Positions 6,055 through 46,660 of a DNA stretch of 64,000 nt are shown in pieces. The translations under genes were made by a program, and so were the position numbers. The DNA comes from a phage. The notes beneath the pieces are model-generated. The model was not told where the DNA came from. It saw only the letters and a program-made list of their open reading frames with translations, and did no database searches. Numbering within the stretch: the first letter of the stretch is position 1; each line of letters begins with the position of its first letter. The stretch is taken from sequence record OZ335964.1. One strand, given 5' to 3'.

Positions 6055-7239
6055 TTAAATGTCAAACAGGTCAGTCAGAGAAGCAACTTTTTCATATTGC
6101 AGCTTTGCAGCCGTGGTAATGTTCTCCAGTGGTTTGACGAAAGTCTTATTAAACAACAAAGGCCAGTCTAACCACTTTAACACCTCGCTTTCAATTTCTG
6201 GAGGAATACGAGTACCGGACAACCAACCAAAACAGATTTCTCCAAACGGATTTCGATCTTTAAGCGGTACGATCATAACCTTCTCGCCTTCACGAATCGG
6301 ATCTAGTCCGAATTTTCGAGCATTACGATTATAACACAATACACTCTTAACCGCATACGGACAACCCTTAATCGGATACCCGTTTGAATCGCTGTATTTC
6401 TGTAGGTTGTTTGCAGATGATACCGCAGCAACCTCAAGATAGTCAAGTTTTCTAAACTCTTGCTCAAAAATACCGTAGTATTCCTGTAGCGATTCTTCCC
6501 CTTCCTGCAACATACGGCGAATACATTCTTTCAGTGATTTCTGACATGCTTTAGGGGTGGAGCTACGTTGCGTTTCCAAGCCCATGATTTTTAGCTTAGG
6601 TTCAGCAAAGCGCGTTCCTTCCATATCCCAAACATTAAGAGCATAACGCTTTTTGCCAGTCCAGAATCCACCGATACCCGCAGATTTCAACGGAGGACCA
6701 GCAATTGCCTCACGGTCCATAAACATCAAGTGCTCATAGTTATTCATGTACTCGCATAACTCGCGATATCCCTTGTCGATAATAGGTTCCATCCGATGTT
6801 TACCGAAATTATCAAGGAAGTCAACAAGTTTTTCGGTATCGTCGAAACGGTCTTCCCCGCCAACCTTATCAACAACATTGTTAACCAGCACATAAACGGA
6901 GTCAGTATCACAATAACGAACATATGCAAAATCAGTTGTTCCGCAAAGCTCGTTTAAGTATTCGTTAATCTTACGCTCAATCCATCTAATAGCGACCTGT
7001 CCAAATAGCGTAATCGCACTAGCATTACGCAGATCGTATAGGCGGAAACGTGGATTCCCAAGCGCGCCATAAAGGCTATTAATCAATACCTTACGAGAAA
7101 GCTGGTTTGTATTACATAAAACCGATTCGTTTTGACAATAGGTTAATAACTGCTTTAACTCATCTACAGACATTGACTCGAATTGTTCTAGCTGTTCGTC
7201 GGTGAAGTCTGAACGAACATCAATATTTTTAATATCCAA
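6055..7239 (-). CDS. 43: DNA polymerase gp43, C-terminal fragment (polymerase domain; '43B')
   Basis: 394 aa; starts just before KVLINSLYG (motif A), contains YCDTDS (motif C) and WTGKKRYA; collinear with the C-terminal ~390 aa of recalled T4 gp43. Probable TTG start preceded by GGGGGTGA SD. Confidence 0.9.
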   Translation of the reverse strand: MDIKNIDVRSDFTDEQLEQFESMSVDELKQLLTYCQNESVLCNTNQLSRKVLINSLYGALGNPRFRLYDLRNASAITLFGQVAIRWIERKINEYLNELCGTTDFAYVRYCDTDSVYVLVNNVVDKVGGEDRFDDTEKLVDFLDNFGKHRMEPIIDKGYRELCEYMNNYEHLMFMDREAIAGPPLKSAGIGGFWTGKKRYALNVWDMEGTRFAEPKLKIMGLETQRSSTPKACQKSLKECIRRMLQEGEESLQEYYGIFEQEFRKLDYLEVAAVSSANNLQKYSDSNGYPIKGCPYAVKSVLCYNRNARKFGLDPIREGEKVMIVPLKDRNPFGEICFGWLSGTRIPPEIESEVLKWLDWPLLFNKTFVKPLENITTAAKLQYEKVASLTDLFDI

Positions 7240-7259
7240 TATTTCACCCCCATCAACGA

Positions 7260-7817
7260 TTAATGTATAATTGCATATTCGCCATGATATTGTACTATAT
7301 GCCTATTATACGCGTCAATAGCTTCTTCTTCCGAATCAAAGTATCCTATATGATGCGTCTCGTGGTTTACTGTTATTCGAACACGCCATTTATCATAACC
7401 TCTCACCTTTGAGATTCCTTTGTATTTTGAAGTCCTTCCCTCAATAGAAATTGATCCATTGCTATTAATCTGATTTTCGTTATGAGAAGCCGCCCTTAAA
7501 TTTTCAATTCTATTATTGGTTCGAACTCTATCAACATGATCTATTTGAGTTTTTCCATTAATAGGTCTTTCCTTGCTAGGACAATGACCATGAAACATAT
7601 GGTATATCACACGATGAATTTTTCTAGCTTTGCCATCTATCCAAACTTTGCAATATCCTTGCTTGTCAGGAAACCTCCCGATCACCTGACCTTTTTGTGC
7701 TTGACTGCTGGTAGATATCTTTCTAATCAATATTCCATCGTCATATTGAAATAATCTGTGATAGAGTTCATAAAGTCTCTTATCTTCGTCATTGTAATGA
7801 ATAACTTGATACATCAC
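7260..7817 (-). CDS. HNH-AP2 homing endonuclease inserted within gene 43
   Basis: HNH motif QIDHVDRVRTNNRIENLRAASHNENQ followed by AP2-like DNA-binding module YKGISKVRGYDKWRVRITVNHETHHIGYFDSEEEAIDAYN; start overlaps stop of 43 N-fragment. Confidence 0.8.
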   Translation of the reverse strand: MMYQVIHYNDEDKRLYELYHRLFQYDDGILIRKISTSSQAQKGQVIGRFPDKQGYCKVWIDGKARKIHRVIYHMFHGHCPSKERPINGKTQIDHVDRVRTNNRIENLRAASHNENQINSNGSISIEGRTSKYKGISKVRGYDKWRVRITVNHETHHIGYFDSEEEAIDAYNRHIVQYHGEYAIIH

Positions 7818-9331
7818 AACTCACCTCGCTTCTTCAATATTTCTTTTATTCGTTCAGCATTACGGTCACACGCCAACATCATGTTTTTGTACTGCTTACG
7901 CTGATCGAATACTTTCTTGATCTCAATCGGTATAATTCCATGAATATCTTTACGATACATCCAACCGTTAGGAGAACACGAGTATTCATCGCTAGGTCGT
8001 GGTGCTGTCTTATTAACATAATCATCAATTGGCGCGGCTTCAAACGATCCAGCGATTGTTTCCGGCGAAATGTTAACCTGTCGAATAATAGATGGGTACA
8101 GACTTGTTAAGTCAAAGCTCATCATCCAACGGTAAGCATTAGGTACTGGCTCTTTTACGAATGCGCCCGGATAAGTCTGCTTAGGCTGTATCTTATTTTC
8201 CGGTACTACTTTACCCTCAGCTTTCAGAGATCCGAAGATAATAGCATCCCATACTTTCATCGGGTTATAAACATGGTTAAATTTAATCTTTGCATAGAAA
8301 CATAGACTATACACAAGATCGATAAATCCACGCTTTTTATCAATCGCCAGCACACGATCAACGTCGCCGATGTTATAATCGATGTAAAGTTGATGGTTAT
8401 CATCACGCAATTTCTTTAACGGACCATCATAATCAACCTTACCGATTCCTGTCTCATATTCAGCAACATAATCTAATGCATATGTTGGTTGAGTCGTAAA
8501 GCTAAATTTCTTGTATAAGTCAATGTAGTCAAGGCTTTCGATCCCCATGATCGTAAATGCTTCACGCTCGTTGCCAAAATCATCCTGTGAGATTCGGGAT
8601 TTAATCTTACCGCACGGGCTTAGACGGTTAGCGGTTCTACTTCCGAACTTATTACTGATACGTTTAATGATATATGGAATATCGAATGTTTCTGTGTTCC
8701 AGCCAGTGAAACCAACGGGTCGGTTTTCCTCAAAGAATCGGATGTATTCTAACAGCAATTCATCTTCTGTATCATAGACGTTATAAACAACGCGCTCTAC
8801 AATATCAGGTCGAAGAATAGACTTTCTTGCTTCCCAGATTTCACCGTTTTTTCCTTTCAAATCAAACACAAAGAAACGATCATGTACGGAATCATAATGC
8901 GTAATTGCATCGATAGGATATTTCGCTTCTTCTGGTTTAGGAAATTCCGGTGCAGTGACCTCGATATCAACCCATGCTACACGGATTTTATTTCGGTCAT
9001 ATCGAATCTCGCCTTTATATGTATCGGACAGATAGGAGATGATAAAATCATCCATCCCTAGCGCCTCTTGCCCCATTTCCCCCATCTTTTTACGCCATTT
9101 GTTGGCCTCGTTCATAGATGGGAATTTTTTAGCAATGCAAGGCTTGCCATAGATATCTTTATAATTTGTAACCATACCAGGCGCGGCATGATGAAATAAA
9201 GTTGGCGTATATTCAACGTAACGCTCTTGTTCTTGTCCAGCATCATCAATATAACGCTCGTAGATCTTATCACCTACTCGCTCACATGACAGAAAATACA
9301 TAATATAAACTCCTTCACTTACGAAAGACAC
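7814..9331 (-). CDS. 43: DNA polymerase gp43, N-terminal fragment (3'-5' exonuclease/N-terminal domains; '43A')
   Basis: 505 aa; collinear with N-terminal ~500 aa of recalled T4 gp43 (ERYIDD...REVEY.P..F, FTGWN.E.FDIPYI, LDYIDLYKKFSFT.QP.Y.LDY, MSFDLTSLYPSIIRQVNISPETIAG). Confidence 0.9.
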   Translation of the reverse strand: MSFVSEGVYIMYFLSCERVGDKIYERYIDDAGQEQERYVEYTPTLFHHAAPGMVTNYKDIYGKPCIAKKFPSMNEANKWRKKMGEMGQEALGMDDFIISYLSDTYKGEIRYDRNKIRVAWVDIEVTAPEFPKPEEAKYPIDAITHYDSVHDRFFVFDLKGKNGEIWEARKSILRPDIVERVVYNVYDTEDELLLEYIRFFEENRPVGFTGWNTETFDIPYIIKRISNKFGSRTANRLSPCGKIKSRISQDDFGNEREAFTIMGIESLDYIDLYKKFSFTTQPTYALDYVAEYETGIGKVDYDGPLKKLRDDNHQLYIDYNIGDVDRVLAIDKKRGFIDLVYSLCFYAKIKFNHVYNPMKVWDAIIFGSLKAEGKVVPENKIQPKQTYPGAFVKEPVPNAYRWMMSFDLTSLYPSIIRQVNISPETIAGSFEAAPIDDYVNKTAPRPSDEYSCSPNGWMYRKDIHGIIPIEIKKVFDQRKQYKNMMLACDRNAERIKEILKKRGEL

Positions 9332-29901: not shown

Positions 29902-30195
29902 TTAACCATTAATCTTGTTTTTGACTACAAAGGATCGGAACTCATCAAAGCCACCAATATAATCACCATTATAGAAAATCTGCGGCATGGTGGCAATAAC
30001 TTCTACCCCTGCGCGATCCTGAATATCGGCAATGATAGAATCAATCTTTACAGGGCGACCGTTTTCGTCAACACCATCATTAACCGGAATGTAGATGTAA
30101 GGGATCTTACGCGATTCACAAAGGCGCTTTGCATTCTGGCAATACTTACAGTTGTAACCTTCAAAACCAAAAATTTCTACCATATTATACCTCAA
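29902..30195 (-). CDS. nrdC: glutaredoxin/thioredoxin NrdC
   Basis: 97 aa; CKYC active site, ...NAKRL..., ...MPQIFYNGDYIGGFDEF... as in T4 thioredoxin. Confidence 0.75.
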   Translation of the reverse strand: MRYNMVEIFGFEGYNCKYCQNAKRLCESRKIPYIYIPVNDGVDENGRPVKIDSIIADIQDRAGVEVIATMPQIFYNGDYIGGFDEFRSFVVKNKING

Positions 30196-31004
30196 TCTAC
30201 GTTAGTTACATAAACTTCTTGTGTATCAGAAGACTTGCCTCCTGAACGATCTAGGCAATAGGTCTTATTCAACAGGACGCAGTTTAGATCATTCCTCTTG
30301 ATAAAGTCAAGAAGATGATCATTTACCTTTCCCTTATGATGCGTGACATTACTGATACCAAACTGAAAACCACGCACCATAATAGATTCCACCCACTGAT
30401 AGAATTTAATCTCTTCCTCGTCACTCCAGAACTTATTATATTCCGCAGAAGTGATAAGGTACGGCGGGTCCAAATAAACGAAATCGCCTGGCAAGATCTC
30501 GATCTCGTCATATCGTCCAGAAGTAAAATTGATTCGACCGTCTTTGTTTTCTTCTTTAAAATTCAGGACACGCTCTACCGCGTTTTCGTTAAAAGTCCGG
30601 CGACCAAAATTAGCATTAAATTCGCCCTTCCGGTTATGTCGGTTAATGTTGCTAAAACTATGCTGAATCAACACAAACAGCGATAGCGGATCTGGATTCT
30701 CGTTATACTTCTTACGGAATGTCATGTAAGCGTCTTTATCTTCGCGAGACAAACCATTCTCGGCAATAATCCGCTTGATCGTAGAAACCGGATCAGGACA
30801 CTCGTCAATGGCCTTGTAAGCGTCAATTAAACGATGGTCGTAGTCATTAGCCAGCACATCACCTTCGACGTACAGAGACACGCTCAAGCCACCACAAAAG
30901 GCATCGACAAAGCGGTTATAGTGCTTAGGGAAATACTTACTAACACCAGGCAATAACTTTTCCTTATTGCCCGTATAGGGAATTAAACCTAATGCTTTCT
31001 TCAT
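30192..31004 (-). CDS. dam: DNA adenine methyltransferase Dam
   Basis: 270 aa; FVDAFCGGLSVSL (AdoMet site) and DFVYLDPPYLITSAEYNKFWSDEEE (DPPY) near-identical in pattern to recalled T4 Dam. Confidence 0.9.
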   Translation of the reverse strand: MKKALGLIPYTGNKEKLLPGVSKYFPKHYNRFVDAFCGGLSVSLYVEGDVLANDYDHRLIDAYKAIDECPDPVSTIKRIIAENGLSREDKDAYMTFRKKYNENPDPLSLFVLIQHSFSNINRHNRKGEFNANFGRRTFNENAVERVLNFKEENKDGRINFTSGRYDEIEILPGDFVYLDPPYLITSAEYNKFWSDEEEIKFYQWVESIMVRGFQFGISNVTHHKGKVNDHLLDFIKRNDLNCVLLNKTYCLDRSGGKSSDTQEVYVTNVD

Positions 31005-34837: not shown

Positions 34838-35057
34838 TTCTTTTATATGGTACTATAACAGGATTAATACAGCAAGCACCAATTACGTTATGAGCACCAC
34901 AATTTAAACATTTATAGTCATGGAACTTATTAAGGAATCGACCAAACTCATAACCGACTAGCGCCGCATGTACTTGAGTCTCGATCTCATCCATATCAGC
35001 CAATGTTTTAGCCTTCATAGTATAATCCTCAAACGGTAGTTTTGCGAAGATGGTCAT
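34821..35057 (-). CDS. hypothetical Cys-rich protein (78 aa)
   Basis: CLNCGAHNVIGACC cluster. Confidence 0.35.
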   Translation of the reverse strand: MTIFAKLPFEDYTMKAKTLADMDEIETQVHAALVGYEFGRFLNKFHDYKCLNCGAHNVIGACCINPVIVPYKRNETEE

Positions 35058-35319
35058 TACATGCTTTTAATGCATCAGTCGCGGTGTCATAGCGAGTATT
35101 ATCATAGCACCAGTAACCATCGGTCAACTGATAAATCAATCCATCCCTTTTAGCTTCGATGAAAGATAACTCTTTGAAAGTTTCTACTTTCTTTGCTGAT
35201 ACTCCACGGTCACGGCGCTTATAGAGTTTAGCTAAAATGCGTTCAGCTTGTTCCTCTTTATCACCAGACAGATCCCAAATAATGTTGCGGATATGTTTGA
35301 TTAATTGTTCAGTGGTCAT
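35029..35319 (-). CDS. hypothetical protein (96 aa)
   Basis: Directly downstream of promoter cassette at 35320-35378. Confidence 0.4.
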   Translation of the reverse strand: MTTEQLIKHIRNIIWDLSGDKEEQAERILAKLYKRRDRGVSAKKVETFKELSFIEAKRDGLIYQLTDGYWCYDNTRYDTATDALKACNDHLRKTTV

Positions 35320-35378
35320 CTTTGATTCTCCTTAGTTGGTATGTGTGCATTATAGCACTATGACTTTCATTGTCAACA
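35320..35378 (-). promoter_or_regulatory. sigma70-type early promoter with conserved leader
   Basis: TTGACA - 16 nt - TATAAT (flanked by GUGC/GCAC mini-hairpin) - AAGGAGAATCAAAG-ATG. Confidence 0.6.
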
Positions 35379-35380
35379 AC

Positions 35381-35412
35381 TAAAAACAAAAAAGGCTACC
35401 CCTAAGGATAGC
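35381..35412 (-). terminator. rho-independent terminator
   Basis: Minus strand GGGCUAUCC-UUAGG-GGUAGCC followed by UUUUUUGUUUUU, right after stop of 35421..36221. Confidence 0.6.
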
Positions 35413-35420
35413 CCATAAAA

Positions 35421-36221
35421 TTACACGCGAGCACCGTAGATCGTGCCTACTTTATCCCAGCGAGGGGCATTGCCAGTAACAGCCTTACCAGCTGCACCAG
35501 CACCACTGGCATTATAGTTTGATGTACGAACGGCAGCACCACCAGCCGCACCAACGTTACCACCAGCACCACTCATGTTATTACCATCAACGGTTACTTT
35601 ACCACCTGCGGCGGTTAACGATGCATTACCACCATTACCACGACCACCACGACCACCTGTACCGAAAGGACGACCACCACCGCCGCCTGCAACGCCAGCT
35701 AATGTGAAGTTATAGTCTATGGACCATCCGCCGCCGCCACCGCCACCGCCAGCAATTGCACCATTATTCGTAATACGTAAGCGTGTACCGATGCCATTAT
35801 TGATCGCTGTACCCCCGGCGGTCGCACGAACTAAAGCATCTCCAGATCCACCACTAGACCCAGATCCGTTACCGCCACGACCATATACAGTGACGCCGGA
35901 ATTAATGATAAGAGTTACATATTCATTAGTTAATGAGCTAGGGAAATCCAGACACGGAACACCAGCAGAATTAGAAACAAGATCCCCGGTAATAGTAACT
36001 ACTACCGGAGTAGACCCCTGTGATTTTAGATAGTTAATCAGAGTATCTTTATTGTAGTTGTGGTTTGCACCAATGCTATAATGAATCTCTTTAGAGCGTC
36101 CGACCATCGCCGACATATACGCCGGACGACCTAAGCGAACAGCTTGCATTGCGGCGCTCATCCACCGTTGACCAGTCTCAGCAACAGCCGATGATCCTAC
36201 CCAACCTGCTTTAATTGCCAT
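35421..36221 (-). CDS. glycine-rich protein resembling T2-type gp38 tail-fibre adhesin
   Basis: 266 aa; N-terminus WVGSSAVAETGQRWMSAAMQAVRLG...IGANHNYN...VVVTITGDLVS...VYGRGGNG then poly-Gly runs (AIAGGGGGGGGW, GGGGGRPFGTGGRGG), C-terminal WDKVGTIYGARV; matches my recollection of gp38 adhesin architecture. No alignment run. Confidence 0.5.
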   Translation of the reverse strand: MAIKAGWVGSSAVAETGQRWMSAAMQAVRLGRPAYMSAMVGRSKEIHYSIGANHNYNKDTLINYLKSQGSTPVVVTITGDLVSNSAGVPCLDFPSSLTNEYVTLIINSGVTVYGRGGNGSGSSGGSGDALVRATAGGTAINNGIGTRLRITNNGAIAGGGGGGGGWSIDYNFTLAGVAGGGGGRPFGTGGRGGRGNGGNASLTAAGGKVTVDGNNMSGAGGNVGAAGGAAVRTSNYNASGAGAAGKAVTGNAPRWDKVGTIYGARV

Positions 36222-36275
36222 AAGGTTTCCTCACAAGAAAAGCCCCATTTAAGGGGCATTGATTGATAATATTAC

Positions 36276-36497
36276 TTAGATGATCTCTGCTTCACCATTC
36301 AGGAAGAAAGACCATGTTTTGTTAGGATAGCGAAGCGCCCATGATTCAGCAGTTTTAACACCAGCTTCGAACAATTGACGGCTGGTCACTTTAGCCATAC
36401 CATCTTCGATGGCAACGTTTTCAATAATCATCGGGTACTTAGCTCCACGCATGAAACCGAAGCCAGCGGAAGATTTGATAATTTTAACAGTTGCCAT
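36276..36497 (-). CDS. hypothetical protein (73 aa)
   Basis: Downstream of promoter cassette at 36498-36575. Confidence 0.4.
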   Translation of the reverse strand: MATVKIIKSSAGFGFMRGAKYPMIIENVAIEDGMAKVTSRQLFEAGVKTAESWALRYPNKTWSFFLNGEAEII

Positions 36498-36575
36498 TTT
36501 TGATTCTCCTAGAAAGTGTATCTCGTTTCGATGGGTGTATTATGCAATAACACCGGATCGCTGTCAACACTTTCT
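36498..36575 (-). promoter_or_regulatory. early promoter-hairpin-leader cassette (PeSL-like)
   Basis: TTGACA - 17 nt - CATAAT within GGUGUuAU/AUaACACC hairpin - leader CAUCGAAACGAGAUACAC - AGGAGAATCAAA-ATG. Confidence 0.6.
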
Positions 36576-36585
36576 AAGAAAAATT

Positions 36586-36870
36586 TTAAATTAATCGAAT
36601 ATAGCCCAGAATTTCAGCACTTTTAGCCAGTCCTAAAACTTCCCATTCAAGGTCGCCGTAGTCATAATTTGCAACCATCAGTTCACCATTTTTCATGCAG
36701 CAATCATGAGAGAAAATTTGCCCCGCATAAACTACGATAGTGATAAACTTTCCTGATTCTGGCGGTGTGGAAGACAAAGCGACCATATGACCATTCAGCT
36801 TAGTCACCAGTGATGGAACAATAAAATTCGGGCTTACCTGAATACCGTTAAATTCGTTTGTGTCTTTCAT
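36586..36870 (-). CDS. hypothetical protein (94 aa)
   Basis: Co-oriented ORF. Confidence 0.4.
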   Translation of the reverse strand: MKDTNEFNGIQVSPNFIVPSLVTKLNGHMVALSSTPPESGKFITIVVYAGQIFSHDCCMKNGELMVANYDYGDLEWEVLGLAKSAEILGYIRLI

Positions 36871-37217
36871 GCCAGACCTCGCAAAACACTAATAGCATAA
36901 TCATGCTGGTTATTCATAATATCAATTGCATTGTGATAACGAGCTAAACCATCAAGAATAAATTCTTGTTTATCCTGTTTTAGCTTAGTATCACGCGCAG
37001 CCATAAGAGCATCAAGAACAGGTCCAAAGTGATTATCTAATTCATCTTCGGTTGCAATGTTTCCTATTGCCTCGTCGATCCGTGATTCTAATTCTTGCTT
37101 TTCGTTGATCACTTGCTGGGTATATTCCAACACATCAAGAATATCGCGGGTAACGTCGCCATGATAAGGTATTCCCGCATGAAGGTGATCAATTAGTCGT
37201 TGAATGTCAATGTTCAT
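36867..37217 (-). CDS. hypothetical protein (116 aa)
   Basis: Co-oriented ORF. Confidence 0.4.
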   Translation of the reverse strand: MNIDIQRLIDHLHAGIPYHGDVTRDILDVLEYTQQVINEKQELESRIDEAIGNIATEDELDNHFGPVLDALMAARDTKLKQDKQEFILDGLARYHNAIDIMNNQHDYAISVLRGLA

Positions 37218-37552
37218 TCGTAACCCTCCTCTGAAAGCACATCCCAGATCGTTGCGTCAAGGTGCATTAAATTCCACATAATAGAGTCATAACTACCGAA
37301 GCCAGAAGTAAAAATTACATCACACTGGCGATAGGTCTTATGAAAATCGGTGGCTGTCTCTGCATCAATCGGCATATCGTCACCGGAAAGCACCAGACAT
37401 TTAAGAATCATAACTCTGTTAGCCGTTGGCGCTTGCTTAGTCTTTTCAGCATATTTTTCGATGATCCGTTTTGCCTTTTCTTCTTTGATACGTCCAGAAT
37501 AGACACGGTTTCGGTATTGATTCATAATAACTTCAATTACATCATTTTGCAT
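37214..37552 (-). CDS. hypothetical protein (112 aa)
   Basis: Co-oriented ORF. Confidence 0.4.
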   Translation of the reverse strand: MQNDVIEVIMNQYRNRVYSGRIKEEKAKRIIEKYAEKTKQAPTANRVMILKCLVLSGDDMPIDAETATDFHKTYRQCDVIFTSGFGSYDSIMWNLMHLDATIWDVLSEEGYE

Positions 37553-37751
37553 TCTTCACGGTCTCCATAATTGTTTTGTAAGCCAGTTTAAGATGATCAC
37601 CGAAAAACTTTGCAGTGTTACCCTTCGGATCGCGAAGCATGGTTTCTACGATCTCATCGGCAGTAACAATTTCACCTTTCTTTGCTGCGTGTTCTACCAT
37701 ATACTTCAAAGTTTCTTCGGAAGCAAGTGCTGCGGCTACTGGATTAATCAT
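37542..37751 (-). CDS. hypothetical protein (69 aa)
   Basis: Downstream of promoter at 37752-37812. Confidence 0.4.
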   Translation of the reverse strand: MINPVAAALASEETLKYMVEHAAKKGEIVTADEIVETMLRDPKGNTAKFFGDHLKLAYKTIMETVKNAK

Positions 37752-37812
37752 TTTGGTTCTCCTTTGTTGTCGATGTGTGCATTATGCTATACCCTATTCT
37801 TGTTGTCAACAC
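37752..37812 (-). promoter_or_regulatory. sigma70-type early promoter with conserved leader
   Basis: TTGACA - 17 nt - CATAAT (GCAUaAUGC mini-hairpin) - leader - AGGAGAACCAAA-ATG. Confidence 0.6.
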
Positions 37813-37814
37813 CT

Positions 37815-37846
37815 AAAAACGAAAAAAGCCACCCTTTCGGATGGCT
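37815..37846 (-). terminator. rho-independent terminator (possibly bidirectional)
   Basis: AGCCAUCC-GAAA-GGGUGGCU then UUUUUUCGUUUUU on minus strand; plus strand also has hairpin + TTTTG. Confidence 0.65.
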
Positions 37847-37855
37847 TTTGATTAA

Positions 37856-39994
37856 TTAAGGATTTCGGCCAGGGTAATGCTTAAATCGACCGTAACCAGT
37901 TTCAATGCTCATATCTCGTTGACGCACAATCGCCCAATAACCGTTGCAGGAATCTTGAAGATATAGATCCTTACCTTTTAGGAACTCATTAAAAATAGTG
38001 ATCTGCCAATCATAATAGACCGCATCAGCAAGACTACCCATCCAACCGTGCGGATCTTCCATCAGTTCGACAAGTTCATCAATTACCCAATATGGACAAG
38101 GGCTAAATTTACCCTTACTAAAATCGCTGAACATAGTAACGATCTTGACTTCCGGTCGAGGCTGATCGGGAATATCTGGACGTTTGTTAACTACGACTTG
38201 CACATATTTTGTGTAGCCTACAATTTCACCTTCATCTAAGTTAGTGTTATTGTTTTTGTCGGCAAATGCAACAAATTTGTAAACACCAGAATCATTTAAT
38301 GTTGCATTAGCTTTACGATATACCGGAACACTGGAATCTGCAATAGGTAATTTAATACCACTTTTACTAAATTCATAGGTCGGCACATAGTTAGATGGCG
38401 GTTTAATCATGGTTGCTTCCAGCACCAACGGATCACCCTCAGTAATTTGCACCGGATGCGGACCGTCAAATTCCATATTAGGAATTACTTCAACTTTATA
38501 GGTTGCACGTCCTGCAATATCATATCCGGTATGCGCACTATGAGGATCTCGGCTAGGACTATCGCGATATTCATGCGACCAGATACCATTATGTTCTTTA
38601 TCCGCCGCATCAGTGATCTTATATTCTTTCGTTTCAATCGGCAATTCTGTTACAAGAACATCGTTTTTCAAAATTGCTAACGAACGAGTTTGAGTCGGAT
38701 CATTACTTGCTGGAGGTTCTGGATCAACAATTTTAATAACAATAGGTTCCCCAACCTCAATACCGCTATAATCATGCTCGACGTCATAGATATCTAACAT
38801 ACGGCGATCATAAAATAACGGGCGAGAAGTTGGAGTTCTCTGCGGATCATCATCACGCGCAGGAGCTACCAACAATTGCAGGGCTACACTATTATCATAT
38901 TGCAATTTCTCAAGACTAATACGGTCATAACCAGGATCACCATATTTCTTGCTTTGTAATTGCGTACCACCTAACATCCACGTAAAGTAGACATTATTTG
39001 TTAATAAACCATAATGTCGGTTCCATGAATTATCAACAGGGGAAACTGGCATATCAATACTAACAGAAGACCCAGAAGGATAACGAAATTCAATAGCAGA
39101 AAAATCTCGGCTAAAAAATTCGTTTTCCTTGACGTTAACGCGGAATCGATGGCGCTGACCTTCCAGATACGATTCACTACTACCAGGACCATTTTCAACC
39201 TTATAGGAACGAATACAAGCGACATAATCACCTGCATCTGCTTCGGTAGCATGTTTCGTCACATATAAAGTTTTATTCTTTGATTCATAAACCAAAGTAC
39301 CATCGCCACGTTCCAGACGATAACGAACTATGGTATGTTCAGCGTCATTTGGGGCATCGTCTTCTACAGTATAATAGGCAGGTGCATATTTTTGTACATT
39401 GAATACAGCTAAATTTTCTCGAATTGTTGCTGTAAACGGATATACAAATTTAACATCACCTGTTTCGTCGCTTAATTCCATTCGATAAAGACCGGAAAAT
39501 TCAGGCCATGCGAATTTTGCAATTTTAAATTCACGATGGTCCAATCCCAAATCACCATCTACGGAATCAACTAGACCATTATTATAATACAAGTCAACAG
39601 AGATATTAGCAGGAATATTACTACGAAAAACAATTTTCGCTTTAAGTTCATCACCAATATTAAATGATGTCGGAGGATATACATGTTCAACATATGGATT
39701 ATCAAATAACTTAAATGTAAAGTTTTCCGTGCCAATATCGATAGAATCACCACTAAATGATGTGTCGCCTAGCGCATAACCTCGAACGTTTACAGACCAT
39801 CCGGTAACATCGTCTTCTTTAACGGAATCCAATGTAAATGTCGGAGAGGCACTTGTTGCTATAATCTGGTCATTTTTCTTCCAGACATAACCTTTTTTCG
39901 GTTTTGTTGAATCAGGGCTTTCATCAACAATACAGCAGCTAAAATCGTGCGGCATCCAAATCATATTATTGACCGTGGTGTTTACTACTGCCAT
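37856..39994 (-). CDS. large beta-rich protein with Ig-like motifs (712 aa)
   Basis: At least two Ig-domain-type D-x-G-x-Y motifs (EADAGDYVACIRSY; LNDSGVYKFVAF); rich in N/D/Y/T; no catalytic motif recognised. Confidence 0.5.
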   Translation of the reverse strand: MAVVNTTVNNMIWMPHDFSCCIVDESPDSTKPKKGYVWKKNDQIIATSASPTFTLDSVKEDDVTGWSVNVRGYALGDTSFSGDSIDIGTENFTFKLFDNPYVEHVYPPTSFNIGDELKAKIVFRSNIPANISVDLYYNNGLVDSVDGDLGLDHREFKIAKFAWPEFSGLYRMELSDETGDVKFVYPFTATIRENLAVFNVQKYAPAYYTVEDDAPNDAEHTIVRYRLERGDGTLVYESKNKTLYVTKHATEADAGDYVACIRSYKVENGPGSSESYLEGQRHRFRVNVKENEFFSRDFSAIEFRYPSGSSVSIDMPVSPVDNSWNRHYGLLTNNVYFTWMLGGTQLQSKKYGDPGYDRISLEKLQYDNSVALQLLVAPARDDDPQRTPTSRPLFYDRRMLDIYDVEHDYSGIEVGEPIVIKIVDPEPPASNDPTQTRSLAILKNDVLVTELPIETKEYKITDAADKEHNGIWSHEYRDSPSRDPHSAHTGYDIAGRATYKVEVIPNMEFDGPHPVQITEGDPLVLEATMIKPPSNYVPTYEFSKSGIKLPIADSSVPVYRKANATLNDSGVYKFVAFADKNNNTNLDEGEIVGYTKYVQVVVNKRPDIPDQPRPEVKIVTMFSDFSKGKFSPCPYWVIDELVELMEDPHGWMGSLADAVYYDWQITIFNEFLKGKDLYLQDSCNGYWAIVRQRDMSIETGYGRFKHYPGRNP

Positions 39995-40015
39995 GAATCC
40001 TCCTTATAACTGACA

Positions 40016-40414
40016 TTAAGCCAGTCGAGTGAGTTTATAAATTGTTTTAAAGCATAAAACTTTAATATCGTCTAAAACGCTCTGCAAAGAGCTATCAACA
40101 TCATTATAAATCTCACTAGCCATTTGCGTTAATTCCTGCAAATAGGCAATTTCGTTAATCTCCTTACGGACGACCAACGTTGGTTGATACCGACCAGTGA
40201 TCCCAATATTGGTTTCTGTGAAATTATCAACCAATTCTTGCATTTCAAGATAGAACTCTTCTAGAGCCTTATGTTTTGAATAAGACCCAGGTCCAGTTAC
40301 CCCAAAATGCGCAGAATGCATATAAGTAACGCTCATTAGGCATTCACCAATAAAGCGGTCTACTTTATTAGCTTTTCCTCCCTCGGAAGTCTGCCTAAAT
40401 TCACTGAATTTCAT
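40016..40414 (-). CDS. hypothetical protein, possible ferritin/Dps-like fold (start at internal Met)
   Basis: Segment YMHSAHFGVTGPGSYSKHKALEEFYLEMQELVDNF loosely resembles the Dps helix-A/B signature; weak. Confidence 0.3.
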   Translation of the reverse strand: MKFSEFRQTSEGGKANKVDRFIGECLMSVTYMHSAHFGVTGPGSYSKHKALEEFYLEMQELVDNFTETNIGITGRYQPTLVVRKEINEIAYLQELTQMASEIYNDVDSSLQSVLDDIKVLCFKTIYKLTRLA

Positions 40415-40700
40415 TATATCGATTCTCCATTTTATTAAGCACAATAAATTGATTTGCGGCATACTCTCCCATCATGAAACAATGTTTAGCATCCATACAT
40501 TTACTACGTGCGTATGTTTTCATTATGTGGTCATGAAATTTTTGACTTGTCTCCACCGATGGTTGTATTTTGTTTATATACACGATCATAGCACCGTCGA
40601 AGTAATCAGTAAAGTCACCAACAGGACACTGATCGGCACTTACGCTACCAACTGCCATAACGCATATACCCGCAACGAGTGTTTTACGAATAAATGACAT
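40401..40700 (-). CDS. rI: lysis-inhibition antiholin RI-like periplasmic protein
   Basis: 99 aa with N-terminal signal-anchor (LVAGICVMAVGSVSA); C-terminal ...QKFHDHIMKTYARSKCMDAKHCFMMGEYAANQF... parallels recalled T4 RI (...EQFYSFMRTTYKNDPCSSDFECIERGAEMAQSY...); adjacent to tk as in T4. Confidence 0.65.
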   Translation of the reverse strand: MSFIRKTLVAGICVMAVGSVSADQCPVGDFTDYFDGAMIVYINKIQPSVETSQKFHDHIMKTYARSKCMDAKHCFMMGEYAANQFIVLNKMENRYNEIQ

Positions 40701-40732
40701 AAGTCATTCCCCCAGATTAAAAATTTCAAGTA

Positions 40733-40740
40733 TATTTATA
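40733..40740 (-). promoter_or_regulatory. late promoter TATAAATA upstream of rI
   Basis: Exact T4 late consensus on minus strand ~33 nt upstream of the rI ATG, inside the loop of a 9-bp inverted repeat (40711-40747). Confidence 0.5.
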
Positions 40741-40761
40741 ATCTGGGGATATATTTACGCC

Positions 40762-41358
40762 TTAGTGGGTAGATCCATCAATAAAATGTTTACGACAAAC
40801 AGAAATATATTTATCTTCCGCACCAATTTCGATTTGAGCACCATCGCGAATAACATTACCATCTTTATCTACGCGAAGGACCATAGTTGCTTTCTTTCCA
40901 CAATGACAAATACCCTTCATTTCGACCAGTTTATCAGCAAATGCCATCAATGCCGCAGATCCTTCAAATAGATTGCCCTGAAAGTCGGTGCGAAGGCCAT
41001 AGCACAGTACAGGGATATTTGCATCATCAACAAGCGCACACAAGCCTAAAACATGCTCTTTAGTCATAAATTGGGCTTCATCTACAAATACAGCATCAGG
41101 ACGCCATCGATCCGATCTACGCTTACCTAGTGATTCACGATAAACTAAGTCGAAAAGATCATCCGATTTAGTGAACGTAATAGCCGGAGCACTTAGACCA
41201 ATTCGGGAAACAACTTCACTATCTGAATCACGATTATCAATCGCTGGTTTAAGAATTAATACTCGCATATCACGTTCGGTATAGTTATAAGCACTTTGTA
41301 ACAGGGAAGTTGATTTGCCAGCGTTCATAGATGCATAGTAGAAATATAGTTGCGCCAT
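40762..41358 (-). CDS. tk: thymidine kinase
   Basis: 198 aa; MAQLYFYYASMNAGKSTSLLQSAYNY... and ...PVLCYGLRTDFQG...ISVCRKHF near-identical in pattern to E. coli/T4 Tdk. Confidence 0.95.
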   Translation of the reverse strand: MAQLYFYYASMNAGKSTSLLQSAYNYTERDMRVLILKPAIDNRDSDSEVVSRIGLSAPAITFTKSDDLFDLVYRESLGKRRSDRWRPDAVFVDEAQFMTKEHVLGLCALVDDANIPVLCYGLRTDFQGNLFEGSAALMAFADKLVEMKGICHCGKKATMVLRVDKDGNVIRDGAQIEIGAEDKYISVCRKHFIDGSTH

Positions 41359-44837: not shown

Positions 44838-45536
44838 CTAACCACGGGTATAGTGTTCCAGAACAACGGTCAGATGAATATATTCTAATAAATCTTTCCA
44901 AAAGTCAACATCTGGTTCTTCCGGCATACCGTTTTTCTTTGCCTCTTCACGCGCGAGTTTAACACGCTCGTAGAGATCTTTCAATTCTTCCCGCACATTA
45001 TCAAAGGTTCTTTCTCCTAACTTACACGCTAAAATAGAAGAACGTCGCGCGAGTGGGAATTGTAGATCACCTGTCTGATAGATTTCAAGTAGCTGATAAC
45101 CAACACGCAGAGCATGAGAAAGATCTTTCCAGTTACTGAAATACTTTTCAGATTTTGCTACCTGCTTTTTGAGATAACCAGACAAACCCCACATCCCAAC
45201 ATGATAGAATTTATCGCGATGTGTTCGGATGTATTCCCATTCTCTGGAGGATTCAATCAACATGTTACTAGGCGCGTGCACCATGTCAATAGCGCCAATA
45301 TCACCTTTACATGCCAGATTGATAAACCGTTTTAGACTGAACATATTAACGTCAATATCGTCTTTGGTGTTCTTGATACCTTGACCGCTAGTGCTTTGGT
45401 CATAGTGTTCTTTCATCGTTCCTAAGATAATTTCTTTCGCAGTCGGAACAAAGATACCACGATAATCTTTATCGGAATTTTCAGTATCAAGACCGTATAA
45501 GTGAGATCCGAAGACCATTTTAACCATTGTATGCAT
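44838..45536 (-). CDS. nucleotidyltransferase-fold protein (Pol-beta superfamily, minimal NTase motif)
   Basis: N-terminal FGSHLYGLDTENSDKDYRGIFV fits GS-x3-G-x5-SD-x-D; 232 aa. Confidence 0.5.
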   Translation of the reverse strand: MHTMVKMVFGSHLYGLDTENSDKDYRGIFVPTAKEIILGTMKEHYDQSTSGQGIKNTKDDIDVNMFSLKRFINLACKGDIGAIDMVHAPSNMLIESSREWEYIRTHRDKFYHVGMWGLSGYLKKQVAKSEKYFSNWKDLSHALRVGYQLLEIYQTGDLQFPLARRSSILACKLGERTFDNVREELKDLYERVKLAREEAKKNGMPEEPDVDFWKDLLEYIHLTVVLEHYTRG

Positions 45537-45578
45537 AATTAAACCCTCAGTTGATTAAGAGATTGCATCATATCATCA

Positions 45579-45612
45579 TAAAACGAAAAAGCCAACCCTT
45601 TTCGGATTGGCT
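45579..45612 (-). terminator. rho-independent terminator
   Basis: AGCCAAUCC-GAAAA-GGGUUGGCU followed by UUUUUCGUUUU on minus strand. Confidence 0.65.
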
Positions 45613-45622
45613 TGATGAAAAA

Positions 45623-46039
45623 TTAGAGAGATTCGGTAAAGGTGCGCGAAATAACATCACGTTGTTGGTCTGGAGTCAGACTATTGAATCTTACGGCATA
45701 TCCGCTAACGCGAATGGTTAGTTGCGGATACTTATCAGGATTAGCAACCGCATCAAGAAGAAGATCGCGACTCATCACATTGATATTCGCGTGCTGACCT
45801 CCTTCGACAACCGGAGCACCAGTATCTACAATAACAGGACGGAAGCTAGTTGTGTGCAGTGCCAGCGAATCGACGTCTTCTGCGGTGATCACATGGTCTT
45901 CTGCGAAAGTTTTACTAACAATTACTTTAGCGCCGATCAGTGCTTTCGGTTCGGATACCAGAATCATAGGCGCGAAATGTCCACCAATAATAGTACCTTT
46001 ATGCTCACCTTTCATGATTTGAATTGCTTTAAATTCCAT
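45623..46039 (-). CDS. autonomous glycyl radical cofactor (GrcA/YfiD-like)
   Basis: C-terminal [11 protein letters not shown]...[35 protein letters not shown] nearly identical to E. coli GrcA C-terminus (glycyl radical motif RVSGY); a T4 homologue (Y06I) is described in the literature. Confidence 0.88.
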
Positions 46040-46174
46040 AATTCACCTCTTATAGATCAGGACGTTCGTCATTAATTTTACCAACCAAAACACCATAGAG
46101 TTTATCAGGTTGGACTTTACGATTCTTATTGATTGTAGCACGAAATCGACGAGCTACGCTATCTTTATTTTTCA

Positions 46175-46660
46175 TCAGTTGATACCTAAGCCAATGAAAA
46201 TAGGTTGGTCTTCTACATTACCCATTCCAACACTACGTCGATTTAATTCTAAAAACTGCAATACGCTGTCAGTAAATCCGCGCATGGTAGTATCTAGGAT
46301 AAAAATTGTTTTGTCAAGACTACGACCTCGCCAAGTGATCGGATTCAGGAAAGTTCGGATCGACGTGCAATCTACATTTGAAATGTTGACATTTTCACCG
46401 CGACCGCGATCTCGGATCGTTTTGGCATGTTCCCGCGTCGTTGAAACGATAAAGACACTATAGCCCTTTCGCGTATAATGGTCATATAACTTGATTGTAG
46501 CGTCTGTATGCCCTGTCTGACGGCCTAAATTGATTGAGACAATGGAATCTAGGTCATCAGCAAAATTGCGTCGCTTACGACGTTCTATGATGTCATTTAC
46601 GGCAGATACACACGCAGCATAAATCAAATCTTTACTTTCTAATTTTACATCAATATTCAT
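46175..46660 (-). CDS. hypothetical protein (161 aa)
   Basis: Co-oriented ORF. Confidence 0.4.
   Translation of the reverse strand: MNIDVKLESKDLIYAACVSAVNDIIERRKRRNFADDLDSIVSINLGRQTGHTDATIKLYDHYTRKGYSVFIVSTTREHAKTIRDRGRGENVNISNVDCTSIRTFLNPITWRGRSLDKTIFILDTTMRGFTDSVLQFLELNRRSVGMGNVEDQPIFIGLGIN

Follow-up and report, generated by a model that had tools for sequence, protein, structure and literature searches.

Gene 38 of an RB49-like Krischvirus: a mosaic adhesin allele at the displaced early-region locus

Gene 38 and its surroundings

The DNA analysed here is a stretch of 64,000 nucleotides from phage record OZ335964.1, referred to below as the window. Its minus strand carries an ORF with an ATG start codon, assigned here to gene 38 (g38), together with a Shine-Dalgarno sequence and a short hairpin before it and a strong intrinsic terminator after it (Table 1). 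The gene is on the same strand as nrdC, dam, rI and tk and lies inside a minus-strand run of about 50 kb of replication and early genes (61, 41, uvsX, 43, 45, 46/47, 55, nrdD/G, 49, nrdC, dam, g38, rI, tk, vs, regB). The coordinates of the neighbouring genes bear out what a first, sequence-only reading of this DNA had noted, namely a location on the early strand between nrdC and tk.

The 2.2-kb stretch around g38 is matched by 74 phage records, almost all of them Escherichia or Shigella Krischviruses (RB49-like), with JK32 as the best match. Window and JK32 are collinear, with 95-98.6% identity over most of the approximately 50 kb compared; a few blocks fall to 84-94%, and the main departures from collinearity are the core of g38 and a few indels. 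We assign the window to Krischvirus, that is, to an RB49-like T4-type phage.

Table 1. Features of the g38 locus and its neighbourhood. Gene nucleotides (nt) and amino acids (aa) are counted from the g38 start codon.
Feature	Position	Strand	Basis or score
Gene 38, long-tail-fibre tip adhesin (receptor-recognising protein), 266 aa	35421..36221	minus	ORF, Pfam, PHROG, PDB, RB49/JK32 position
Segment A, nt 1-150 (aa 1-50), Krischvirus-type gp37-attachment domain (W7, W20, Y35)	36072..36221	minus	
Segment B, nt 151-330 (aa 51-110), beta-helix part and 5' transition zone	35892..36071	minus	
Segment C, nt 331-745 (aa 111-248), Gly-rich motifs and hypervariable loops, imported allele	35477..35891	minus	
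Segment D, nt 746-801, conserved C-terminus, Krischvirus type again	35421..35476	minus	
g38 cassette (hairpin, Shine-Dalgarno sequence, g38, terminator), 896 bp, present or absent as a unit in the genus	35380..36275	minus	MIZ5 empty site
Shine-Dalgarno sequence GAGG, 7 nt before ATG	36229..36232	minus	read from sequence
Short hairpin GCCCC-TTAAAT-GGGGC with TTTTCTT before the g38 Shine-Dalgarno sequence, weak terminator/attenuator	36235..36257	minus	-11.2 kcal/mol
Strong intrinsic terminator after g38, 9-bp stem and T-run	35383..35414	minus	-14.9 kcal/mol, z -3.65
Sigma-70-type early promoter TTGACA-16-TATAAT for the next ORF	35349..35376	minus	12/12 consensus matches
73-aa ORF upstream of g38	36276..36497	minus	
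Nearest upstream promoter, sigma-70-type TTGACA-17-CATAAT, before the 73-aa ORF	36539..36567	minus	11/12 consensus matches
T4-type late promoter motif nearest to g38, TATAAATA, between tk and rI (4.5 kb upstream)	40733..40740	minus	
nrdC	29902..30195	minus	
dam	30192..31004	minus	
rI	40401..40700	minus	
tk	40762..41358	minus	

The gene product is a gp38-type adhesin

All sequence features named in the sequence-only reading were found in the 266-aa ORF: GWVGSSAVAETGQRWM at aa 6-21, IGANHNYN at aa 50-57, ITGDLVS, VYGRGGNG, the glycine runs G158-G165 and G179-G183 and, at the C-terminus, WDKVGTIYGARV. In a Pfam scan the protein matched PF05268 (GP38; E 5.1e-70) over aa 45-266, covering profile positions 1-218 of 218, and PF21721 (Gp38_N; E 4.4e-18) over aa 1-40, again with the full profile covered. 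It also matched PHROG 2056 'tail fiber protein; host specificity' (E 1.2e-93), gp38 of phage S16 (6F45_D, aligned to aa 1-264; E 5.6e-49) and a GFP-gp38 fusion (9v85_A; E 2.1e-41). The glycine content is 22% in the whole protein and 34% in aa 111-248. A mere low-complexity likeness had been named as the outcome to check for. The strong full-profile family matches put the resemblance far beyond such a chance likeness: the homology to gp38 is significant and full-length, and the proposed gp38-type adhesin stands. We identify the ORF as a true T2/S16-type gp38 adhesin. The G+C content of the gene is 50%, compared with 40% for the window.

In an alignment of eight gp38 sequences, W7 and W20 of the attachment domain are invariant, and YGRGGNG, G158-G165, GGGGGRPFG, GAGGNVGAAGG, GAAGKAV and W255..VGTIYG are invariant or conserved. 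At the third attachment position, every Krischvirus-type sequence has Y35, the functional gp38 of RB49 included.

A T4-type gp38, that is, a tail-fibre assembly chaperone, was considered and is ruled out. The protein matches adhesin families only; at E values up to 1, the Pfam scan returned GP38 and Gp38_N and no chaperone family.

The displaced locus is the rule in RB49-like phages

In the RB49 record (AY343333) gene 38 occupies 45367-46143 on the complementary strand between RB49ORF078c and RB49ORF080c and is annotated as 'similar to T2 and RB69 gp38 adhesin'. The records of JK32 (JK32_00080), GEC-3S, Phi1, JSE and ECD7 have g38 annotated at the homologous position. The window g38 likewise lies between the homologues of RB49ORF078c and RB49ORF080c, with the same hairpin and terminator, and not where synteny usually places the family, directly after g37 on the late strand. 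Its flanks are 94-100% identical to those of RB49, JK32 and GEC-3S; in the wider comparison with JK32, RB49 and about 44 further Krischvirus records, in which g38 is annotated under the match, the identity is 94-98%. The g38 of RB49 has been described as 'displaced to a distant locus', with a small ORF filling its usual place (Trojet 2011, PMC3157838), and in the Krischviruses FL37 and FL38 gp38 is not near the holin (2025 paper, PMC12032242).

The displaced g38 is the normal and already published arrangement of RB49-like phages and not an anomaly of one genome. Thus the idea of a translocated, stranded adhesin gene was right in that the gene lies away from g37 on the early strand, but this has been in the literature since the description of the RB49 genome, and a g38 at this early locus should not be flagged as irregular. 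What is new here are three points: the exact limits of the cassette, the mosaic origin of the allele and its near-identity to a prophage gp38.

A precise empty site defines the cassette

At least eight Krischviruses (MIZ4, MIZ5, FL04, FL15, FL20, LF73P4, KMB43 and kvi) carry g38 at the canonical site. There it lies directly after g37 and upstream of a Dc5-like ORF and the holin gene. At the early locus, MIZ5 (L014, 8085-8145) reads ...ATTTAA/TTGTTGACA..., the slash marking the junction at which the stop codon of the 73-aa ORF is joined directly to the -35 element of the next early promoter. This exact empty site defines the limits of the 896-bp cassette, which is inserted in a hyperplastic region between these two elements. 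The same limits offer clean boundaries for engineered adhesin swaps.

With respect to the position of g38, the genus is dimorphic, with the gene either at the early-region locus or at the canonical site. The 3' end of g37 together with g38 in MIZ5-type phages is 91-93% identical to T6-like Tequatroviruses, and the last 12 nt of the RB49-type g37 (AAAAAGAATTAA) persist after the MIZ5 g38. From this remnant we infer that the canonical-site g38 is a secondary import and that, within the genus, RB49 represents the older arrangement.

On the downstream side, the terminator and the early promoter (35414..35349) form a complete PeSL-type unit, a stem-loop with a strong sigma-70 early promoter as defined by Arbiol et al. 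2010 (PMC2839356), which serves the next ORF. The RB49 homologue of the promoter is Pe:45336; that of the terminator (45339-45360) has a TransTerm confidence of 100 (Nolan 2006 supplement). We also considered g38 itself as a PeSL-ORF cassette and rejected this, because there is no promoter between the upstream hairpin (36257..36242) and the ATG. The paper on PeSL units makes no mention of g38.

A mosaic allele with an imported core

The allele was compared segment by segment, by nucleotide identity and by informative sites, with JK32 and RB49, with Tequatrovirus G8 and with an E. coli prophage (L008). Segment A is 97.3% identical to JK32 and 96.7% to RB49, 85% to the prophage and 58-64% to G8/SH-2 (G8 58%). 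Segment D gives 100% with JK32, 95% with RB49, 95% with the prophage and 67-70% with G8/SH-2 (G8 70%). Beyond the gene, the flanks are 98-100% identical to JK32 and 97-98% to RB49, and those of G8 and the prophage are unrelated. Segment C, which by analogy would form the polyglycine sandwich, the receptor-binding part of gp38, shares 52% with JK32 and 55% with RB49, but 89.4% with G8, 82% with SH-2 and 90.4% with the prophage, and nt 603-690 are 100% identical to G8. For segment B the values are 77% (JK32), 78% (RB49), 72% (G8/SH-2), 88.9% (prophage) and 98.9% (Krischvirus contig L009). The informative sites form an unbroken Krischvirus run to nt 154, are mixed from nt 154 to 322 and then form an unbroken G8-type run from nt 322 to 726; Krischvirus-type sites resume at nt 738, so that the 3' breakpoint falls between nt 726 and 738. 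The mosaic preserves the reading frame and all Gly-rich motifs.

At the protein level, the window, L009, G8/SH-2 and the prophage protein (P0002) share the Gly-rich motifs and loops of aa 120-245 except for a few substitutions; the loops of segment C likewise differ by few substitutions from those of L011, G8 and SH-2. The N-terminus, in contrast, is MAIKAGWVGSS...RPAYMS in Krischvirus and prophage gp38 and MAIVGVPGWIGES...VPGWMS in Tequatrovirus. As judged from these sequences, the type of the N-terminal attachment domain goes with the fibre partner and not with the core.

We interpret the window g38 as a recombinant mosaic with Krischvirus-type ends (aa 1-50 and 249-266), which would have to fit the Krischvirus gp37, and an imported core (aa 111-248). 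Modular shuffling of gp38 has been described before (Tetart 1998; Trojet 2011, PMC3157838), and the present allele is a case of it at the displaced locus. None of the Krischvirus records of the phage collection carries the window allele; it is present in one Logan contig, L009, also of Krischvirus, whose gp38 is 98% identical in amino acid sequence.

The core is shared across Tequatrovirus G8, FJ1 and SH-2 and the E. coli prophage, and host range follows the core, not the genus. Receptor predictions for therapeutic Krischviruses should thus use aa 111-248 only. Since its core is shared with G8, SH-2, Lutter and the prophage, the phage of the window should have their receptor specificity. Phage FJ1, with a gp38 of 85% identity, adsorbs in a periodate-sensitive manner, and none of the Keio mutants resisted it (bioRxiv 10.1101/2022.07.04.498734). 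This suggests that a carbohydrate could be the receptor for the imported core, but it is too weak to be made a claim.

Expression of g38

Between the 73-aa ORF and g38 there is only a 5-bp hairpin, whose stem (36257..36242) of five GC pairs is terminator-like, and no promoter-like site was found between this upstream ORF and the g38 start codon. The description of the upstream region as a terminator and a Shine-Dalgarno sequence only is therefore correct, the elements being a GC hairpin with a U tract and GAGG. The hairpin is conserved in JK32, RB49, GEC-3S and L009. Its RB49 homologue (46164-46179) is scored by TransTerm with a confidence of 90 (Nolan 2006 supplement), which counts against efficient read-through. 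A hairpin also stands at the same place before g38 in G8 (where the record annotates a terminator), SH-2, MIZ5 and the prophage, and in these four the approximately 70 nt preceding g38 likewise gave no promoter. With a hairpin and no promoter in all g38 contexts examined, this upstream arrangement appears to be a general property of g38 and not specific to the locus.

A hairpin that masks the Shine-Dalgarno sequence, as in T4 gene e, was also considered. Only a weak structure covers the Shine-Dalgarno sequence and AUG, and the 71 nt fold no better than shuffled sequences do (z -1.0), so this was rejected. An Rfam scan of the whole window found no family at gathering score.

RB49-like phages lack motA, and middle promoters have not been detected in them (PMC1524935). 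Probably, g38 is made by read-through of the weak upstream hairpin. Chances are about even that most of its transcripts would come from the sigma-70-type promoter 36567..36539 (Pe:46502 in RB49) together with promoters further upstream; the rI late promoter possibly adds late transcripts. Demand for gp38 would be low, with only six copies per virion.

A possible, though rather doubtful, alternative is that g38 is truly late, transcribed either from the rI late promoter (40740..40733) with about 4.5 kb of read-through or from a late promoter that departs from the consensus. The rI motif is on the same strand, corresponds to the predicted RB49 Pl:48756 and seems to drive a Hoc-like ORF in the phage of the window. 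In L009, g38 and its hairpin are intact although the 5' part of the 73-aa ORF is replaced and the sigma-70-type promoter before it is absent; hence this promoter is not indispensable. A search of the coding strand from 35000 to 41200 for TATAAATA, ATAAATA and one-mismatch variants gave nothing nearer than 40740 except the weak variant TATGAATA at 36918, the best such motif nearby. Two terminator-like hairpins, however, intervene between the rI motif and g38, the strong one at 37849..37824 (-16.6 kcal/mol) and that at 36257..36242, and (T/A)ATAAATA is absent within 0.7 kb upstream of g38. Nothing usable on Krischvirus g38 transcripts or the timing of its protein was found in the literature.

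A working and probably the only adhesin

Searches of related phage records with tblastn gave one gp38 place per Krischvirus genome, and the window contains no second gp38 copy. The g37 region of this phage lies outside the window, and the single-copy reading for that region is drawn from the relatives. In RB49 the order is g34, g35, g36, g37, a 79-aa ORF (ORF251w/Dc5) and t; only this 79-aa ORF, and no g38, lies between g37 and t. RB49 gp37 has a Peptidase_S74 domain (PF13884; E 1.4e-11) at aa 871-930, as expected of gp38-capped fibres, and the prophage fibre paired with gp38 also carries a C-terminal Peptidase_S74 chaperone domain. In RB49 host-range mutants the only changes were gp38 E230K or E230K together with Y231S (Golomidova et al. 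2022, PMC9569957). As these mutations map to g38, the gene encodes a functional fibre adhesin. A search of the literature for virion or proteome data on Krischvirus gp38 gave nothing usable.

Taken together, the ORF is very probably the Krischvirus gene 38 and the sole receptor-recognising adhesin of the genome, a working gene and neither a spare nor a decoy. By analogy with the S16 structure, and in line with the RB49 literature, the C-terminal chaperone domain of the gp37 trimer would be cleaved off first. With its N-terminal helical attachment domain, one gp38 monomer would then cap the tip of the fibre, and its polyglycine-sandwich domain would display the hypervariable loops for binding to the host receptor.

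The sequence-only reading had offered other roles. One was a spare cassette; as such it would be a second copy beside a canonical g38 after g37, used for an alternative host range or as a recombination donor. The surroundings would suit this: the hyperplastic region abounds in shuffled ORFs and in promoter/stem-loop units, and g38 does occur at the canonical site in some Krischviruses (MIZ5 type). Yet every Krischvirus record has exactly one gp38 place, the canonical-site genomes are precisely empty at the early site and RB49 has no g38 after g37. The two sites are alternatives and were never found together, which makes a spare copy very improbable. Of the proposed reservoir for host-range recombination, one part survives: the active gene has itself arisen by recombination, as a mosaic, but is no silent store.

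Still more remote is the role of a decoy or superinfection-exclusion factor, expressed early and masking receptors instead of entering the virion. It would agree with the early strand, a sigma-70-type promoter upstream and no late promoter nearby. However, gp38 has no signal-like or transmembrane segment (the highest Kyte-Doolittle mean over 19 aa is 1.32) and hence cannot reach outer-membrane receptors, its gp37-attachment domain is intact and of the resident type, and the RB49 host-range mutations lie in this very gene. A decaying, non-functional relic of a translocation is just as hard to credit: only the odd location speaks for it, against a full-length ORF with both Pfam domains end to end, a good Shine-Dalgarno sequence, conservation of g38 in about 44 related genomes and a mosaic that kept its frame and every Gly-rich motif.

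Comparison with known systems

The g38 genes of RB49, JK32, Phi1, JSE and GEC-3S share with the window g38 the locus, the flanking ORFs, the upstream hairpin, the downstream terminator and the strand. Identity to them is 93-100% in the flanks and in gene nt 1-150 and 746-801, whereas overall the window allele is only about 73% identical to theirs in nucleotides and 72-76% in amino acids.

The gp38 of Salmonella phage S16 (PDB 6F45 chain D), which serves as structural prototype for the T2-type adhesins, is homologous over the full length, with the same domain order and Gly-rich motifs, including the run of eight glycines (PMC6851490). It differs in the hypervariable loops and has Trp where the window gp38 has Tyr at the third attachment position; in S16, moreover, g38 comes after g37.

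T4 gp38, a tail-fibre assembly chaperone, is an unrelated protein with another role (PMC3157838, PMC6851490). It has in common with the window gp38 only the gene number and an old annotation string. In the RB49 and JSE records this string, 'distal long tail fiber assembly catalyst', labels the adhesin g38.

In Tequatrovirus G8, Lutter, FJ1, SH-1 and SH-2, gp38 is 84-86% identical to the window protein over aa 6-266, with hardly any difference in the Gly-rich motifs and hypervariable loops. Unlike the window g38, the gene of these phages occupies the canonical late-strand site (g37, g38, t); its N-terminal attachment domain is of the other type and its flanks are unrelated.

A close relative outside Krischvirus is found in an E. 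coli prophage (P0002; GCA_016113265.1, contig JAASOS010000034), whose gp38 is 96% identical over the whole protein. Nucleotide identity is about 89% from the gene start to about 44 nt past the stop codon, the same terminator included. The prophage gp38 has the Krischvirus-type N-terminus, and the fibre gene paired with it is 76-78% identical to Krischvirus g37. The element itself differs: this temperate, chromosomal prophage of siphovirus type has a lambda-type portal, an HK97-type capsid and a GpJ-like tip, and was found in 59 of the 5426 complete E. coli genomes. A 158-aa ORF annotated as 'phage tail protein' lies between its fibre gene and g38 and is probably the tail-tube gene. An 808-aa ORF in the tape-measure position has no family match.

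A prophage-like donor would explain segments B and C jointly better than one of G8 type, although transfer could have run either way. Tentatively, the 896-bp unit could be seen as a portable adhesin cassette that circulates among three kinds of E. coli phage, namely Krischviruses (hyperplastic region), Tequatroviruses (g37-g38 locus) and a chromosomal prophage of siphovirus type, with the prophage copy as the likely donor of the window allele during infection of a lysogen. The Krischvirus adhesin would then be expressed from early promoters and uncoupled in time from the late fibre genes, which could be tolerated because gp38 is a monomer needed in few copies.

Adhesin sites in Krischvirus and in an E. 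coli prophage

With respect to the site of its adhesin gene, Krischvirus is a dimorphic genus. In at least eight Krischvirus genomes a Tequatrovirus-like module of g37 tip and g38, the gene of the gp38 tail-fibre tip adhesin, occupies the canonical site, where g38 directly follows g37, and in these genomes the early-region site is exactly empty. The module at the canonical site and a g38 in the early region were never found together in one Krischvirus genome.

An adhesin slot is also present in a siphovirus-type prophage, which is carried on the chromosome by 59 of 5426 complete E. coli genomes and, apart from its fibre genes, was not closely matched by any record of the phage collection. There, a Krischvirus-like gp37 fibre gene is followed by a 158-aa ORF annotated as "phage tail protein" and then by the adhesin slot. 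In one strain this slot holds a gp38 with 96% identity to that of the window; in another strain it holds a 168-aa protein with Gp38_N as its only domain.

For gp38 of phage S16, three attachment tryptophans have been described (PMC6851490). At the third of these positions, every Krischvirus-type or prophage gp38 sequence has tyrosine, while the Tequatrovirus types have tryptophan. The tyrosine, at position 35 of the window's gp38, may reflect co-adaptation with the Krischvirus-type gp37 tip.

Features of the window and of the compared sequences
Feature	Sequence	Position	Strand	Remark
Gene 43, DNA polymerase	window	6055..9331	-	two ORFs
HNH endonuclease ORF, 185 aa	window	7260..7817		between both gene 43 ORFs
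PeSL-type unit	window	35349..35414	-	complete (terminator, sigma-70 promoter)
g38 codon 35	window	36117..36119	-	Tyr at third attachment-Trp position of S16 gp38
PeSL-type unit	window	37781..37849	-	complete (terminator, sigma-70 promoter)
712-aa ORF	window	37856..39994	-	counterpart JK32_00086
Adhesin-site dimorphism	MIZ5 (OR167181), piece L013	4980-5762
Adhesin-site dimorphism	MIZ5 (OR167181), piece L014	8085-8145
Siphovirus-type prophage	E. coli L011, GCA_016113265.1 contig JAASOS010000034	121385-142185
Siphovirus-type prophage	E. coli L015, chromosome of GN4741

The early-strand region around g38

The small-ORF block with g38 is flanked on both sides by PeSL-type units, a type described for RB49 and Phi1 (PMC2839356). 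ATAAATA, the core of the late promoter, is strongly depleted in the whole window (8 observed, 25 expected from shuffles; 100 of 100 shuffles reached at least 8), a pattern consistent with stray late promoters being selected against in an early region.

Downstream of the late promoter motif that precedes rI is a 712-aa ORF, which is shared with JK32 and the Krischvirus contig L009; RB49, GEC-3S and MIZ5 have no ORF at this place. Residues 510-693 weakly match the C-terminal region of Hoc-like head decoration proteins (PHROG 1149, E 4e-6), and there is a weak match to an Ig domain (E 0.008). Possibly, this ORF is a second virion-surface gene within the early-strand region.

Split DNA polymerase gene

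Gene 43 is divided into a 505-aa ORF, in which the exonuclease domain is followed by the beginning of the polymerase domain, and a 394-aa ORF with the remainder. A search with Rfam found no intron. At the same place in gene 43, JK32 has a NUMOD3 endonuclease ORF, which differs from the HNH ORF of the window.
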